From Promethearchaeia archaeon (GTDB lineage Archaea; Asgardarchaeota; Lokiarchaeia; Sigyniarchaeales; SOKP01): 64,000 bases of DNA. The notes beneath the pieces were generated by a model that saw nothing but the letters and a program-made list of their open reading frames with translations, was not told where the DNA came from and searched no databases. Where the stretch lies: the NCBI GenBank assembly GCA_029856145.1, contig JAHQWK010000012.1, positions 115,714 to 179,713 of the forward strand. The letters are read 5' to 3'. Every line of letters begins with the position of its first letter. Within the stretch, counting starts at the first letter, position 1. The position numbers and the translations under genes were made by a program. Shown here in pieces: positions 50,159-58,173 of the stretch.

Positions 50159-52516
50159 ATGACTGAAAGAACTCAAAAATTAATGATGAACACACCAATA
50201 AAATCTCTACAAGTAGCCAATATCGAAATCGCTGATGATGCTAGAGCATGTAGACCTGGCATGAGATGGACATTAGATTTAGAGAGAGCTAAGTTATTAA
50301 CTGAATCATATAAGCAAACTGAGGGTAAACCAATGGTACTGAGGCGAGCTGAGGCATTAAAATATATCTTGGAAAACATGACAATTTATATTCGGCCCGA
50401 TGAGTTAATAGTTGGGAATTTTGCTTCAACACCCGATTCAGTTGTTCACTATCCTGAATTCTCATATAAATGGGTAGAGAGAGAAACTGCACCCGGAAAA
50501 GTCTATTCTGAATTATTGACTTCTGAAGAGAGGGAAGAATTAAAGAAGATAGACTCATATTGGGAAAATTTAGCGATTCATCATTTGTTTAAGAAAACAA
50601 TTCCAGAAGAGTTAGTCAGAGAATTTTATGTTTTTAATTGGGAATCTGCTACTCCAAATTTCGAAAAACTATTTCAACTAGGTTTGAAGGGAATAATTTG
50701 GGAAGTTGAGGAGAGAAAACAAAGACTTGAAAAAGAATGGTTAGAAGGAAATCTTAACGGAGATGATTATGTAAAGAAAAAGAAATTTTTGGAGAGTGTA
50801 GTCATCACATTAAATGGAGCAATCAACTGGGGAAAAAGATACGCTAAATTAGCCAGAGAAAAAATTGAAAATGTCGACAGCTTGGAACGAAAACGTGAAC
50901 TTGAAATTATAGCAAATATCTGTGATTGGGTGCCTGAAAATCCACCAAGGACTTTACACGAAGCATTACAGCTTTATTGGTTTGTCCATCTTATTGTAAA
51001 TTTCATTGATGTGCCGATGGTAGGGGATGGAATAAGATTTGATGTATGTTTTAATCCATTTTATGAAAATGATTTGAAGAAAAATGTAGTAACTAGAAAA
51101 CAAGCTCAAGAACTAGTCGAGTGTATTTTTGTAAAATCCCAAGAAACAGGTTTTCTACACCCCCCTATATGGTCAGGCGCAGGGGGTGGAGCTATAGGTT
51201 TTCAGACTATTACAATTGGAGGAATAGATTCTAAAGGGAACGATATAACAAATGAGATCTCTTATATTGTATTAGATGCTATGAATAACGTAAGAACGGT
51301 AACACCTCCATTAGCACTTAGATGGAATGATAAAATACCTAAAAAGTTGGTCGAGAAAGCAATTGAGGTGATAAGTACCGGGATGCCTCAACCTGCCTTT
51401 TTTAATGATAAAGTTAATATTACTCGACTTGTTGGTTTGGGAGTTCCTTTAGATGACGCCAGAAATTATTCCATTAATAATTGCATGGTTCCAACAATCC
51501 CAGGAAAAAATTTTAATCATCGTTCTGCATGGGCTACGGCGATTCCTCTTCCACAAGAACTAACTAAAACCTTAAAATCAATTGGAGAAAATGTAAATTC
51601 AGTTGAAGAACTTATTGATGATTTTATGGAAAACTACAAATTCAGAATCAAAAAGCTAGTTTTTCTATCAAATATCGCGGATACTTTTTATCAAGAATAC
51701 GTGCCCCGACCATTTCTTTCAGCTGTGTTAGATGAATCTATTGAGAGAGCACAAGATGTAAGAGAATGGAATTATGTTCTTGATTATCGAGATGTAGTTA
51801 TCCTTGGTCTAAATAATGTCGCCGATTCTTTTGCCGCAATTAAGAAATTAGTATTTGATGAAAAAAAGATAACTCTTAAAGAATTAGTTGATGCTGTTAA
51901 GAAAAATTGGCGGGGAAAATATGAAGAGATTAGAAAAATGTGCATAGAAGCACCTAAATTTGGCAATGATGATGACTACGTAGATTCAATATCAAGTGAA
52001 ATAGGAAAAAGAATTACTATTGAGACAATGAAATGTAAGACAAACTTAGGAACTCCTTGTATTCCTGATGGTACTGTTGCCTCCGCTTTCTGGTTCTTAG
52101 GGAAAGGTTGCGAAGCAACACCAGACGGGAGAAAGGCTAGAGAAACTCTCCACGATGGAAGTATTTCACCCGTACAAGGAAGAGATCTAAAAGGACCAAC
52201 TGCTGTATTGAACTCTGTTTCAAAAGTAGATCCTTTAATTAGCTGGAATCATCTCCTAAATCAGAGTTTTATGCCCCAATATTTAAAAGAATATAATGCA
52301 GAGATTTTCGCTCAATATTTGAAAACATGGGCTGACTTGGGAATCCATCATATTCAATTTAATGCTGTTGGAAAGGAAGTATTGGAGGATGCTCAGAAGA
52401 ATCCTGAAAATTTTTTAAATCTAATGGTAAGAGTAGCGGGATATTCCGCTTTTTTCGTTGATTTAAGTAAAGATTTACAGGATTCAATTATTGCCCGAAC
52501 ACCCCAATGCTTCTAG
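50159..52516 (+). CDS. Glycyl radical enzyme (PFL superfamily), substrate unknown
   Basis: C-terminal VRVAGYS glycyl motif; Cys loop YSINNCMVP. Confidence 0.92.
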   Translation: MTERTQKLMMNTPIKSLQVANIEIADDARACRPGMRWTLDLERAKLLTESYKQTEGKPMVLRRAEALKYILENMTIYIRPDELIVGNFASTPDSVVHYPEFSYKWVERETAPGKVYSELLTSEEREELKKIDSYWENLAIHHLFKKTIPEELVREFYVFNWESATPNFEKLFQLGLKGIIWEVEERKQRLEKEWLEGNLNGDDYVKKKKFLESVVITLNGAINWGKRYAKLAREKIENVDSLERKRELEIIANICDWVPENPPRTLHEALQLYWFVHLIVNFIDVPMVGDGIRFDVCFNPFYENDLKKNVVTRKQAQELVECIFVKSQETGFLHPPIWSGAGGGAIGFQTITIGGIDSKGNDITNEISYIVLDAMNNVRTVTPPLALRWNDKIPKKLVEKAIEVISTGMPQPAFFNDKVNITRLVGLGVPLDDARNYSINNCMVPTIPGKNFNHRSAWATAIPLPQELTKTLKSIGENVNSVEELIDDFMENYKFRIKKLVFLSNIADTFYQEYVPRPFLSAVLDESIERAQDVREWNYVLDYRDVVILGLNNVADSFAAIKKLVFDEKKITLKELVDAVKKNWRGKYEEIRKMCIEAPKFGNDDDYVDSISSEIGKRITIETMKCKTNLGTPCIPDGTVASAFWFLGKGCEATPDGRKARETLHDGSISPVQGRDLKGPTAVLNSVSKVDPLISWNHLLNQSFMPQYLKEYNAEIFAQYLKTWADLGIHHIQFNAVGKEVLEDAQKNPENFLNLMVRVAGYSAFFVDLSKDLQDSIIARTPQCF

Positions 52517-52540
52517 TAACAAGTATAGGAGGCTGATCCT

Positions 52541-53461
52541 TTGAAAGGGAGCCAAACGGGAAATGAAGGAATAATTTTTAACATTCAAAGATACAGCATT
52601 CACGATGGTCCTGGAATTAGAACAACAGTATTTCTTAAGGGTTGTCCACTAAGGTGTAGGTGGTGTTCAAATCCTGAGTCGATTAACCCTTATCCAGAAA
52701 TTTTTTTTAGGCAAGAGAAATGTGACCAATGTGGAAAATGTGTAGATGTTTGTACACCTAAAGCTATAACTATAAGTGAAAGCTCTATTCAAATAAATAG
52801 AGTAAAATGCAATTTATGCATGAAATGTGAGGATATTTGTTCGCTTGATGCAATAAATCATATAGGAGAGAAATTAACGATAAATGAAGTAGTAACTGAA
52901 GTTATGCGAGATGAATTGTTTTATAATAATTCAGGAGGGGGGGTTACGATTTCAGGGGGAGAACCGCTTTCTCAAATAGAATTCACACTCAACCTATTAA
53001 AGGAATTTAAGAAAAAATCATTACACACTACTTTAGATACTACTGGTTATGCTAATGGTGAAGATTTAGATAAAATTTTATCCTATACAGATTTACTACT
53101 TTTTGATATCAAACATTTAAACCCAGAAATACACCAAAAAGGAACGGGAGTAGCAAACGAAATAATATTAAAGAATTTTGAGAGATGCCTTAAAAAGGGA
53201 AAGAAAGTGTGGGTTAGAGTTCCAGTTATCCCTGATTTTAACGATTCTAATCAATATATGGACAAGTTAGCAAATTTTTTATCGAAAAAGCCAATTGAGA
53301 AAATATCATTATTAAAATATCATGAATGGGGGAGACATAAATACAAATATTTAGATCGAATCTACCCATTAAAAGATATTAATTTTGTTAGCGATGAGCA
53401 AATACAAAATTTTAAAAACATAATTGAAACTTACGGTTTGAAAGCGACCATCGATTATTAA
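52541..53461 (+). CDS. Glycyl-radical activating enzyme with ferredoxin insert
   Basis: HDGPGIRT, GCPLRCRWC, two CxxCxxCxxxC, SGGEP. Confidence 0.94.
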   Translation: MKGSQTGNEGIIFNIQRYSIHDGPGIRTTVFLKGCPLRCRWCSNPESINPYPEIFFRQEKCDQCGKCVDVCTPKAITISESSIQINRVKCNLCMKCEDICSLDAINHIGEKLTINEVVTEVMRDELFYNNSGGGVTISGGEPLSQIEFTLNLLKEFKKKSLHTTLDTTGYANGEDLDKILSYTDLLLFDIKHLNPEIHQKGTGVANEIILKNFERCLKKGKKVWVRVPVIPDFNDSNQYMDKLANFLSKKPIEKISLLKYHEWGRHKYKYLDRIYPLKDINFVSDEQIQNFKNIIETYGLKATIDY

Positions 53462-54784: not shown

Positions 54785-55342
54785 TCAAATTTTTTTACCA
54801 CAGACATGACAATATTCCATACCTATTAATAAAAGTGTATTACACCTAGGACAATTAAAAAGTTCATCCTCCTTAGAAAATGCAAATTCTTCAAATTCTT
54901 CAAATTCCTTTCTATATTCTGGATCCTTAATTGAGAATGTTCCATCCATTTTAATTTCAATATAATTACTAATTCTATCATAATCTTTCATCTTGAATAC
55001 TAAATGGGTTATAAGAAGTATTAAGGCTAACGAACCAGAAATTACAGAAATAATAAATGTAAATATTGTAATAATTGGACTTATAGTGGGATTATACATA
55101 TTCCATACAATTAATAAAAATGTTGAAATACAAAATATACAAAAAAAACTGGATTTTGACCTAAGATATTTCATTATTTTTTCATATCTTATTAATTCCT
55201 TTTTACAATTATCACATACAGGGATTTTAAAATAAATTGTTTTAAATCTCCTAGCCAGTATAGATCTAGCATAAATAAATTCTTCAAGGTGAAGATCTTC
55301 TTTTTTGCATTTTATACATTTATTCGGGAATTTTATCATCAA
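54785..55342 (-). CDS. Two-TM protein with N- and C-terminal zinc ribbons
   Basis: CIKC...CDNC, two TM helices, CPRC...CHVCG. Confidence 0.7.
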   Translation of the reverse strand: MMIKFPNKCIKCKKEDLHLEEFIYARSILARRFKTIYFKIPVCDNCKKELIRYEKIMKYLRSKSSFFCIFCISTFLLIVWNMYNPTISPIITIFTFIISVISGSLALILLITHLVFKMKDYDRISNYIEIKMDGTFSIKDPEYRKEFEEFEEFAFSKEDELFNCPRCNTLLLIGMEYCHVCGKKI

Positions 55343-55374: not shown

Positions 55375-56886
55375 TTAAGGATCGTTCCGAAAGGGGTGTC
55401 GTGCACTTTCAGCATTCTCAATACCATCGTCTACAGTTGGTAAACCTTCCATTGCTTTTCGAATAGCATTTCTTGTTGCTTTATAATTATTTATAAAAAT
55501 TCGTTTTCGAGCGCTAGCGCTTGGGTGTACAAATACATTTACGACAATTAAAATATCCTCTGCAGCTTCTTTAGGTAAGATCCCATCTTCTACGCACTTC
55601 ATTACAGCTTTTGCCACTGCTGCTTGAGCAGGACCATAAGTTAAGCTCGCGTGTCGAAGAGAGGAAACCTTCACTGTAGGGATCATTATTGTTGCTGGTT
55701 TAACTTGCATGTTTGGCTCAAGAATAACCTGCAACCCTTCGCGACCTTTAGCAGGATGAGTTAAAGCTCGAGCATAAGCGTCACCTACTGGTCCATCTTT
55801 ACTTCCTATCAACAAGTCAATATGTGCTAATTCTGCTCTACTCCCAACAAGCGATTCCCCAACTTTTAAGCTAAAATCTGATATTTTTTGAGGTGTTACG
55901 CCCACTGCATAAAAGCGACTCGTTAATTCTTTCTCACCAATTTCGAATTTAATATCTTTCTTTTCAATTAATCCGAGTTTCTCTAACTCAACTCGAAATT
56001 CGTCCTGAAGCTCGTACGAAAGAGTATCTCCAATAATAATAGGTCGCCTTGTCGTACCTACTGGAACGCCCATCATATTTAAGCACTCTTTAGCTCCTAA
56101 AGCTCCAGAATTGATTAACATGCGAGCTAATTTTTGAACTTTCTTTTGTAGAGTTTGAGCTTCTTTTAACCGATTATTTTTCACATGATCGTAAATTTCA
56201 AGCCATATCTTAGGAATAACATTTGCAGAACCAAGTATACAACCTGCAGCTCCACCAGCTAAAGCACCTAATACATTTTCGTCCCACCCAATCAAAACAG
56301 AGATTTTATCGCTTACTTTTTCAAGTAACGCAGAGAAGTACTTGTAATCACCACTAGAATCTTTTATTGCGACAAAATTTTCGATATCAACTAGATCTTC
56401 TACAACTGTCCAAGGCAATTCTAAACCGGTGCAAACTGGAATGTTATACAACACTAAGGGAATGTCCGTTTTTTCAGCTATCGTGAAATAATGATCGTAT
56501 AACCCCTTTGCTTTAGGTTTTAAATAGTATGGTGTTACTATTATAGCTGCATCAGCCCCAATATCTGTTGCAGCTTTGGTAGCGTCTATAACCATTTTTG
56601 TCCCGGTCTCCCCTGTTCCCGCAATTACTGGAACTCTTCCATTCGTTTCGTCTACTACGATTTCTATTACTCTCAATCGTTCCTCAAACGTCATATTCAC
56701 AAACTCTCCGGTCGTTCCTACAGGTACGAGCCCCGTAACTCCTTGTTCTATGAGATAATTGACTAAGTTTCTAAGGTTTTCTTCGTTAATTGATTCATCA
56801 TCTTTATTGAAAGGAGTTACCAAGGCAGGCATAACTCCAGTTGGTCTAAAATCAAATTTTCCCATTATTCTCGCACTCACTCTCAT
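55375..56886 (-). CDS. DapA-family class I aldolase fused to formaldehyde-activating enzyme (Fae)
   Basis: N-terminal GTTGE, PYY, YNIP, IKDSSG; C-terminal VGESLVG..AHIDLLIG...KPATI...GPAQAAVAKAV...HPF. Confidence 0.9.
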   Translation of the reverse strand: MRVSARIMGKFDFRPTGVMPALVTPFNKDDESINEENLRNLVNYLIEQGVTGLVPVGTTGEFVNMTFEERLRVIEIVVDETNGRVPVIAGTGETGTKMVIDATKAATDIGADAAIIVTPYYLKPKAKGLYDHYFTIAEKTDIPLVLYNIPVCTGLELPWTVVEDLVDIENFVAIKDSSGDYKYFSALLEKVSDKISVLIGWDENVLGALAGGAAGCILGSANVIPKIWLEIYDHVKNNRLKEAQTLQKKVQKLARMLINSGALGAKECLNMMGVPVGTTRRPIIIGDTLSYELQDEFRVELEKLGLIEKKDIKFEIGEKELTSRFYAVGVTPQKISDFSLKVGESLVGSRAELAHIDLLIGSKDGPVGDAYARALTHPAKGREGLQVILEPNMQVKPATIMIPTVKVSSLRHASLTYGPAQAAVAKAVMKCVEDGILPKEAAEDILIVVNVFVHPSASARKRIFINNYKATRNAIRKAMEGLPTVDDGIENAESARHPFRNDP

Positions 56887-56892
56887 TTATTT

Positions 56893-58173
56893 TTATTTAT
56901 GTAAATTTTGAGCAGCAATTATATCGATACCATTTTCAATTAATACTTTCGCTGTAGTATTTATAGCAATATATCTATCAAGGTGATTTCTACGCATAAA
57001 TTCCCAATGACCCGAATCAATAATTTCTTGCTTATTCCTGAAATAATCTAAAATGTCCGAAGGATGTTCTCTGTTTCCATCTATTTCCACATCACCACCT
57101 TCATGTTTAGCACTGATATTTTTTACTTTCTTAGCAACTTCCACTAATTCATCTCGTCTATCATATGGTTGCCTTACAATACTTTTTTGAGTTTCAATCA
57201 CATGATGTTCTAATCTAACAACATCTTCAAAATCAAATTCTTTTCTAATATAAGCTGAGAGTTCAATTGTTTCATTATTGACTGAATTAGCAAGATTAAA
57301 ACCAATTAAAGGACTTGTTCCATCTTCTCTGGCAAATAATTTTGCAGTCATTAGAGTCCAAAGGCATGAATAAGGATTATCATTACCCATATATACAGAA
57401 ATTTTAAACTCATTATCTATTCCTAATTTATGAATAATATATCCAAGTAATACTGTGCCTGGATTAAGATTTAAAAGCTGAGTAACTCCGTAATTTGTGT
57501 AATAATAAAGAAATTCATCAATCCACTTCAAGGCGAAGTCATTAGGTTGTCCGACTCCTCCAAAATAGCCTGTGATCGTTTCAGGACCTCCTAAATGGAC
57601 ATTTACTGGCATCCCATCAGGACCAGGAGCAGTTCCCTTGGTATCTAGTGTTTCAACATAGGTTGAGCCTATAACTTGCATTGCTGCAGCCATAGCTAAA
57701 AGATCACCATCTTCTTCTTGTTCTTTCATTTTTCTTACACGAATTATTCTCCCGGGCATCAAATTCTGATCGTTAATCGCAGCTTTTGCAATATCTATAA
57801 AAAATGGAAAATATTGGCAAGCCGAAAGTTCTAAGGTTACAGCATAATCTTTATTAAATATCATTTCTGAAAATTTATCTCCAAGGATCTTTTTTCTATA
57901 ATCAGATATGCTGATAAAAGCATTATTATCTCGTTGTTCAATCAACCAATTTATATCATTTGCATAATCAGGCTTTTTATTATTTAATTTATCTAATAAA
58001 TTATCTAAATTTCTCGCTTCTCTAGCTTTTTTATTAATTTCATCAACTCCACCATACTTATCAATGACTTCAAACAGATTATTTATTAGAACATTATTTT
58101 CATCAGAAAGAAATTTATTTATGACATCTAACGCCTTTTTGGTTATTTCAAGTTTTTTTCTTAAATCTTTCAT
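56893..58173 (-). CDS. Conserved-looking hypothetical protein, possible TIM barrel
   Basis: 426 aa, alternating beta/alpha pattern, ends 6 bp before the dapA-fae ORF. Confidence 0.75.
   Translation of the reverse strand: MKDLRKKLEITKKALDVINKFLSDENNVLINNLFEVIDKYGGVDEINKKAREARNLDNLLDKLNNKKPDYANDINWLIEQRDNNAFISISDYRKKILGDKFSEMIFNKDYAVTLELSACQYFPFFIDIAKAAINDQNLMPGRIIRVRKMKEQEEDGDLLAMAAAMQVIGSTYVETLDTKGTAPGPDGMPVNVHLGGPETITGYFGGVGQPNDFALKWIDEFLYYYTNYGVTQLLNLNPGTVLLGYIIHKLGIDNEFKISVYMGNDNPYSCLWTLMTAKLFAREDGTSPLIGFNLANSVNNETIELSAYIRKEFDFEDVVRLEHHVIETQKSIVRQPYDRRDELVEVAKKVKNISAKHEGGDVEIDGNREHPSDILDYFRNKQEIIDSGHWEFMRRNHLDRYIAINTTAKVLIENGIDIIAAQNLHK

Follow-up and report, generated by a model that had tools for sequence, protein, structure and literature searches.

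What is the function of an enzyme that databases name after the lysine biosynthesis gene dapA, when its reading frame runs on into a complete formaldehyde-activating enzyme (Fae)? The question is raised by an open reading frame (ORF) in a stretch of 64 000 nucleotides (‘the window’: contig JAHQWK010000012.1 of assembly GCA_029856145.1, positions 115,714 to 179,713) from a Promethearchaeia archaeon, an Asgard archaeon whose genome of 3.55 Mb is 97% complete. A preliminary description, made from the letters of the window, had read the gene as an aldolase-Fae fusion that releases a one-carbon (C1) unit from a 4-hydroxy-2-oxoacid, or adds it, in exchange with tetrahydromethanopterin (H4MPT). By comparison with related genomes we characterize the fusion, at the level of sequence, as a real, conserved and misannotated bifunctional enzyme, inherited together with an upstream orphan gene, up426; the pair probably works on 4-hydroxy-2-oxobutanoate (HOB) or a metabolite next to it. 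New here are the co-inheritance of up426, a barrel protein, c7, that replaces it elsewhere, and three interchangeable operons in which these two orphans occur.

Architecture and conservation of the fusion

The ORF (55375..56886, minus strand) is listed with 503 aa and is a single intact frame. As homologues begin with MGKF and are 495-496 aa long, translation probably begins at the ATG at 56865 (Met8), which would give a product of 496 aa. Residues 15-296 (55999..56844, minus strand) make up a predicted class I (Schiff-base) pyruvate aldolase domain; it matches the Pfam family of 4-hydroxy-tetrahydrodipicolinate synthase (DHDPS, PF00701) over its full length (profile positions 2-281 of 289, E 3.5e-76) and aligns with the DHDPS structures 3pud, 2yxg and 1xky. 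Alignment and domain limits place a linker at residues 297-341 (55864..55998, minus strand), which takes in the barrel's C-terminal helices as well as a variable connector. Residues 342-499 (55390..55863, minus strand) are the Fae domain (PF08714, 194.6 bits, E 1.3e-57, profile positions 1-158 of 159), which scores 114 bits to Methylobacterium extorquens Fae, 1y5y. The NCBIfam profiles agree: the fusion reaches 235.7 bits with dapA (TIGR00674, cut-off 206.15) and 193 bits with one_C_fae (TIGR03126, cut-off 118).

Both domains keep their active-site motifs. In the aldolase domain these are GTTGE at residue 57, PYY at 119, YNIPVCTG at 147 and IKDSSG at 174, the last with Lys175 (codon 56362-56364, minus strand). 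The set of residues that binds pyruvate as a Schiff base in solved DHDPS (Thr-Thr, Tyr, Tyr and Lys; Thr44, Tyr107, Tyr133 and Lys161 in E. coli) is present in the alignment, and a motif table shows the Schiff-base Lys to be conserved in all fused proteins. The Fae domain has AHIDL at residue 354, with His355 (codon 55822-55824, minus strand), and retains YGPAQ and ARHPF; in an alignment with the solved M. extorquens enzyme AHIDL, GPAQ and HPF coincide, and none of the shared Fae motifs is lost.

More than 120 independent protein clusters (90% identity) of 495-496 aa carry both domains, at 84-97% identity, and the same continuous fused frame is present in 20 of 20 loci fetched from other genomes; the fusion is thus genuine and conserved, not an assembly artefact. 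The main structural claims of the preliminary description, a complete DapA barrel and a complete Fae domain in one frame with GTTGE, PYY, YNIP, IKDS and AHIDL in place, are borne out by Pfam, NCBIfam, the alignment and the motif table; the same clusters and loci answer its call for other proteins of DHDPS plus Fae architecture and dispose of the assembly chimera it had considered as a risk. Full-length fusions occur in about 10 Asgard families (43-97% identity) and, outside Asgard archaea, in Bathyarchaeia and in Anaerolineae/Caldilineae bacteria; a search among 1.8 billion representatives gave about 12 clusters (50% identity) with the fused architecture. In a FastTree tree of aldolase domains all 74 fused proteins form one clade (support 0.65-0.86), and the ‘unfused’ rows within it are mostly fragments of fused proteins.

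Some lineages (family f31, certain other Asgard lineages and Anaerolineae) carry the fusion as tandem paralogues, for instance at L022:6568-9479, L018:7980-10868 and L105:9070-12507, with complementary losses of Fae motifs. Copy 1 is without the AH.D motif and the C-terminal ARHPF and retains YGP(V/T)Q; copy 2 retains AHIDL and ARHPF and has lost GPAQ. We read these losses as suggesting one Fae active site shared by two kinds of subunit in a heteromer. Judged by its motifs, the window protein is of the complete, single type. The large proteins adjoining the tandem pairs in family f31 had no Pfam match and no link to up426 or c7.

Evidence against a role in lysine biosynthesis

The annotation as a true DHDPS is not without grounds: the score exceeds the TIGR00674 cut-off, and the closest solved-structure matches are DHDPS enzymes (E 1.8e-53). 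Still, the residues that bind aspartate semialdehyde in DHDPS are missing. In the alignment to solved DHDPS the position of Arg138 is taken by Cys152 in the window protein (codon 56431-56433, minus strand) and the position of Asp187 by Trp. Across the 74 fused proteins the former position is C in 43, V in 16, A in 5, T in 5, L in 4 and Y in 1, with no Arg at all, and the latter is Trp or His. The true DHDPS enzymes among the 123 nearest unfused representatives are recognized by a signature of PYYN, YNVPxRTG, KEASG and GDD, and the fused clade is separate from the proteins that have it.

The rest of the pathway is missing too. Profile searches of the 97%-complete genome found no match to DapB_C, Semialdhyde_dhC (Asd) or Homoserine_dh (homoserine dehydrogenase, Hom); among 14 control genomes Semialdhyde_dhC was matched in 14, DapB_C in 11 and Homoserine_dh in most or all. 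The genome has no second real DapA; its sole other DHDPS-family match is weak, a 77-bit domain in a protein of 646 aa. In the ORF of that protein (L002:1630-3570, contig C18) the match lies N-terminal to a long extension, which from its visual appearance could be a kinase or phosphotransferase.

Because the Arg138 position is never Arg and the genome is without DapB, Asd and Hom, we take the window gene, DapA by its database name, to be a different pyruvate aldolase and not a lysine enzyme; a true DHDPS as annotated has almost no credence with us. The preliminary description had argued in the same direction from the Cys and had asked whether a separate true dapA exists; its argument is strengthened by the counts above, and the weak 77-bit domain is all that the genome offers in reply.

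An orphan gene inherited with the fusion

The gene up426 (56893..58173, minus strand) encodes a 426-aa orphan and is the co-transcribed upstream partner of the fusion, with about 27 nt between its stop and the likely start of the fusion. The sample of the window genus comprised 54 genomes, 38 of which have the fusion. We saw up426 in exactly those 36 fusion genomes in which no contig end interrupts the locus; where the fusion is missing (16 genomes, several at 95-99% completeness), up426 is missing from every one. The fusion and up426 are therefore a co-inherited two-gene accessory module. Between the Asgard genomes compared, up426 sequences share 65-100% identity.

For up426 there was no match in Pfam, NCBIfam or the ESM Atlas; with loosened thresholds, profile searches against Pfam and PDB sequences still gave none for either up426 or c7. 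An AlphaFold (AF2) model of up426 (pLDDT 76) has a TIM barrel preceded by a helical domain. In Foldseek, class II FBP aldolases rank first, weakly (E 2e-3); in VIA-align, Kce/BKACE, class II aldolases, MTHFR and other unrelated barrels tie at Z 11-12. We also considered up426 as a homoserine kinase and found this unsupported; a ThrB-like gene adjoins the threonine synthase gene ThrC in c7-bearing bacteria, and the window genome has no ThrC.

Three interchangeable operons

In other Asgard families the fusion is preceded not by up426 but by c7, an orphan of 310-330 aa unrelated to it. It too is modelled as a TIM barrel (pLDDT 84), and Foldseek ranks class II aldolases highest for it, namely YdjI, tagatose-bisphosphate aldolase and FBA (E 8e-9 to 1e-7). 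In the ESM Atlas c7 led to U32-like clusters, with PF01136 on 17-24% of members, which should be taken as a lead only. Comparison of up426 with c7 by hhalign gave a probability of 4%, so that homology between them is not shown; they were mutually exclusive in 10 of 10 genomes tested.

At least 567 relatives of c7 were found in genome contigs, and we counted same-strand neighbours in 80 fetched loci. The fusion, single or as a tandem pair, adjoins c7 in 28 of the 80. In another 15 loci, from Bipolaricaulota, Fraserbacteria, Thermotogae and some Anaerolineae, the neighbour is a PanB-family hydroxymethyltransferase (378 bits), and in 4 of these the pair stands behind a formate-tetrahydrofolate (THF) ligase. 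One Acidobacteriota and one Bathyarchaeia contig have c7 next to Hom and an aldehyde:ferredoxin oxidoreductase (AOR). The c7-PanB arrangement is exemplified by L082:6166-7956 and the genes following it, and by L069, L081, L086, L091 and L099, in metagenome-assembled genomes (MAGs) of Bipolaricaulota, Fraserbacteria and Thermotogae. All five c7-PanB genomes checked have two PanB genes; in G400 (locus L125), the sole genome examined in this respect, the other copy is followed by the ketopantoate reductase gene PanE, the ordinary pantoate pair. With such a second copy present, we take the c7-linked PanB to be a dedicated paralogue.

The orphan up426 also occurs without any fusion or Fae. In Asgard families f13 and f16 it heads an operon with a class I/II aminotransferase, a homoserine dehydrogenase (NF004912, 415 bits) and an AOR (L035:8001-13456; also L034 and L036-L042); in f16 a PatB-family C-S lyase (TIGR04350, 479 bits) often comes next, and oligopeptide ABC transporter genes flank the operon. 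The AOR in these operons may stand in for aspartate kinase and Asd, or else the operon may oxidise homoserine to aspartate.

These arrangements look like one operon slot with three fillings: DapA-Fae in organisms using H4MPT, a PanB paralogue in organisms using THF, and aminotransferase-Hom-AOR. PanB is known to transfer a hydroxymethyl group from methylene-pterin to a 2-oxoacid, and the enzymes of the third set connect aspartate, aspartate semialdehyde, homoserine and, by way of the aminotransferase, the keto acid of homoserine. The metabolite that the three sets of partners would have in common is HOB or homoserine. Because up426 and c7 have, in other genomes, a PanB paralogue or aminotransferase-Hom-AOR as their operon partners, we place the fusion, provisionally, at the HOB/homoserine node.

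Proposed reaction

We consider it rather probable that the fusion, which works with an orphan-barrel partner, catalyses pyruvate + methylene-H4MPT ↔ HOB + H4MPT; this is the most likely reaction on the comparative evidence. In the N-terminal class I aldolase, of the DapA/NAL superfamily, Lys175 would bind pyruvate as a Schiff base; the C-terminal Fae would interconvert formaldehyde plus H4MPT and methylene-H4MPT. Formaldehyde would be handed from one active site to the other, so that the net reaction would read pyruvate + methylene-H4MPT + H2O ↔ HOB + H4MPT. The partner up426, in the two-gene module with the fusion, would act on a neighbouring metabolite at the HOB/homoserine node. From general knowledge of PanB and SHMT reactions, the net reaction is expected to be near-reversible.

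The window genome has an H4MPT pathway, with MCH (348 bits) and a separate Fae-Hps. The latter is canonical and lies at L003:1399-2775 (contig C9); as it is encoded in addition to the window gene, the organism has two different aldolase-Fae fusions.

The preliminary description had proposed that HOB and pyruvate are interconverted with transfer of the C1 unit to or from H4MPT. The part of that interpretation directed against lysine biosynthesis stands; the chemistry gains independent comparative support from the partner-gene operons, with HOB still a presumed substrate; the upstream partner gene had been overlooked. A full-text literature search found no paper on the DapA-Fae fusion or on the associated operons, including the one with Hom and AOR. 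HOB itself has been described as a non-native metabolite, formed by promiscuous aldolases in a synthetic homoserine cycle (review, PMC8879981).

Pathway gaps and direction of flux

Several lineages agree with a biosynthetic reading, in which the module would make HOB for homoserine. None of the five c7-PanB bacteria has Hom and all five have ThrC, next to which two of them carry a ThrB-like gene. The five genomes checked from Asgard families f13 and f16 all have ThrC and lack Asd, and their only Hom sits in or near the up426 operon; in genome G372 up426 is about 0.8 kb from ThrC. In whole fusion-bearing families Hom is absent or rare: 0 of 12 genomes in f18, 0 of 19 in f19 and 6 of 89 in f31. 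Homoserine supply would thus fit the bacteria and Asgard families that have ThrC and are without Hom or Asd.

Several points weigh against HOB formation by the fusion, or against a biosynthetic role for it in the window organism. HOB was chosen as the substrate from gene neighbourhoods, and the fold matches of up426 and c7 are generic TIM-barrel ties. The symmetries of DapA (dimer or tetramer) and Fae (pentamer) have no obvious match, which leaves physical channelling putative. The genomes used are MAGs, and since related ones do not count as independent samples the co-occurrence counts are descriptive only. Profile searches of the window genome found no ThrB, no ThrC above cut-off and no real Cys_Met_Meta_PP (MetB-type) enzyme; for want of such a consumer, homoserine made from HOB would have no known sink there. 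In the genus the module is independent of Hom (encoded in 17 of the 38 genomes that have the fusion and in 6 of the 16 that do not), and 9 of the 10 genus genomes without ThrC carry the module.

Three further proposals were set aside in whole or in part. That the fusion replaces Hom is true only at the level of whole families and fails inside the window genus. Threonine building in the window genome is unsupported, with neither ThrB nor ThrC present and no positive link of the module to ThrC in the genus. A link to homocysteine synthesis of the HcyBio type was dropped as well, the family being present in 50 of 54 genus genomes regardless of the module. The window genome has only the 432-aa type of HcyBio (COG1900; C20:90222-91412) and is without the type of about 495 aa found in most relatives, as well as without Asd and Hom.

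The direction of the reaction may differ between lineages; in the window genome it may run catabolically, or serve to supply up426. More generally, we see a possible widespread natural route that would connect central metabolism with the HOB/homoserine node without Asd or Hom, a counterpart of the synthetic homoserine cycle, in three versions each needing up426 or c7 and with Asgard archaea, Bathyarchaeia, Anaerolineae, Bipolaricaulota and Fraserbacteria as hosts; we put this joint proposal forward tentatively, as somewhat less than an even chance.

Alternative explanations

The same chemistry could be fixed in the catabolic direction: HOB, derived from homoserine, methionine or another C4 compound by up426 and an aminotransferase, would be split to pyruvate and methylene-H4MPT, and the latter oxidised or used in the Wood-Ljungdahl branch. 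The accessory nature of the module (38 of 54 genus genomes) and the missing homoserine consumers of the window genome agree with this, as do the oligopeptide transporter genes beside the f16 operon and the formate-THF ligase beside c7-PanB, which could run towards ATP. But no source of HOB or homoserine was identified, up426 stands beside ThrC in G372, and elsewhere the module fills biosynthetic gaps, with Hom or Asd absent and ThrC present. We regard a purely catabolic enzyme as rather unlikely, while an exchange between pyruvate and HOB whose direction may vary remains our preferred reading.

Two further proposals change the substrate. The pairing of c7 with PanB-family genes in bacteria, together with the fact that ketopantoate is the 3,3-dimethyl analogue of HOB and that methanogens among the control genomes have no PanB, might point to an H4MPT-dependent ketopantoate hydroxymethyltransferase, acting on 2-oxoisovalerate and methylene-H4MPT for CoA biosynthesis. 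A role as a PanB substitute was rejected, though, as the window genome encodes its own PanB (373 bits). The c7-linked PanB is a second copy, the other one in G400 being that paired with PanE; some near-complete genomes of the genus do without the module; and the aminotransferase-Hom-AOR partners indicate C4 amino acids rather than valine-derived acids. DapA-type Schiff-base aldolases, moreover, use pyruvate. This makes the ketopantoate reaction highly improbable. Nor do we find it probable, though the case is slightly better, that the substrate is some other aldehyde or sugar acid and that Fae is only an H4MPT-binding, regulatory or oligomerisation module. The chemical diversity of the DapA family would allow it, and several divergent fused clusters, like tandem copy 1, are without the Fae His and the C-terminus; yet the window protein keeps every Fae motif that is shared with the M. 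extorquens enzyme, the tandem copies have lost complementary motifs, a pattern to be expected where a shared active site is maintained, and the replacement of the fusion by a PanB paralogue argues for real C1 transfer.

Other genes in the window

Next to the module on the contig are genes that we do not count with it. A glycyl radical enzyme (785 aa, PFL-like with a Gly_radical domain) and its radical SAM activase (50159-53461, plus strand) are absent from the related loci compared, so that the pair falls outside the module. A 185-aa ORF of low GC content (54785-55342, minus strand) lies directly downstream of the fusion; it has zinc-ribbon sequences at both ends and a membrane part between them, and related loci do not conserve it.

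Implications

Should the proposed reaction be correct, the exchange between pyruvate plus pterin-bound C1 and HOB would be a natural one, which the literature we found treats only as engineered. It would explain how many uncultured anaerobes can have ThrC without Asd or Hom, among them Asgard archaea, to which eukaryotes are more closely related than to any other known archaea. A systematic misannotation would be corrected, as hundreds of ‘DapA’ calls would be inflating the lysine biosynthesis predicted for Asgard genomes. Two large orphan families, up426 and c7, would gain a metabolic setting that can be tested, and pathway engineers would gain a dedicated HOB-forming enzyme that avoids free formaldehyde.

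Comparison with known systems

By analogy, the fusion is a combination of known kinds, the architecture of Fae-Hps and chemistry of the PanB type: it would be a non-homologous analogue, on the H4MPT side, of PanB-type hydroxymethyl transfer, following the same logic as Fae-Hps.

DHDPS (DapA, EC 4.3.3.7) shares with the window enzyme the fold and the pyruvate Schiff-base residues, hence a TIGR00674 score above the cut-off; it differs in having Arg138 and Asp187, in having no fused Fae, and in its pathway, where Asd supplies the substrate and DapB takes up the product, both of them absent from the window genome.

In Fae-Hps (bifunctional 5,6,7,8-tetrahydromethanopterin hydro-lyase/3-hexulose-6-phosphate synthase, NF009833), Fae is likewise fused to an aldolase that handles formaldehyde, and formaldehyde passes between an enzyme of C-C bonds and H4MPT. 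The window fusion scores only 158.9 bits with this profile (cut-off 274), and only its Fae part matches (profile positions 2-161 of 392). Its order of domains is reversed, with the aldolase N-terminal; it has a class I Schiff-base barrel of the DapA family and no Hps domain; and the carbon partner, ribulose-5-P/hexulose-6-P in Fae-Hps, would here be pyruvate/HOB.

PanB (ketopantoate hydroxymethyltransferase, PF02548) is a single-domain, metal-dependent enzyme that uses THF. The fusion resembles it in the presumed reaction, in which C3 of a 2-oxoacid receives a hydroxymethyl group from a methylene-pterin, and in occupying the same operon slot beside c7. In sequence the two are unrelated: PF02548 does not match the fusion, which would employ a Schiff-base Lys, a separate Fae and H4MPT.

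The closest engineered counterpart is the HOB aldolase step of the synthetic homoserine cycle, in which E. coli RhmA joins pyruvate and formaldehyde to HOB, which is then transaminated to homoserine (PMC8879981). There, free formaldehyde is the substrate of a promiscuous enzyme in a designed pathway, whereas the window enzyme is natural, is predicted to be of class I and, as proposed here, would be coupled to a pterin.

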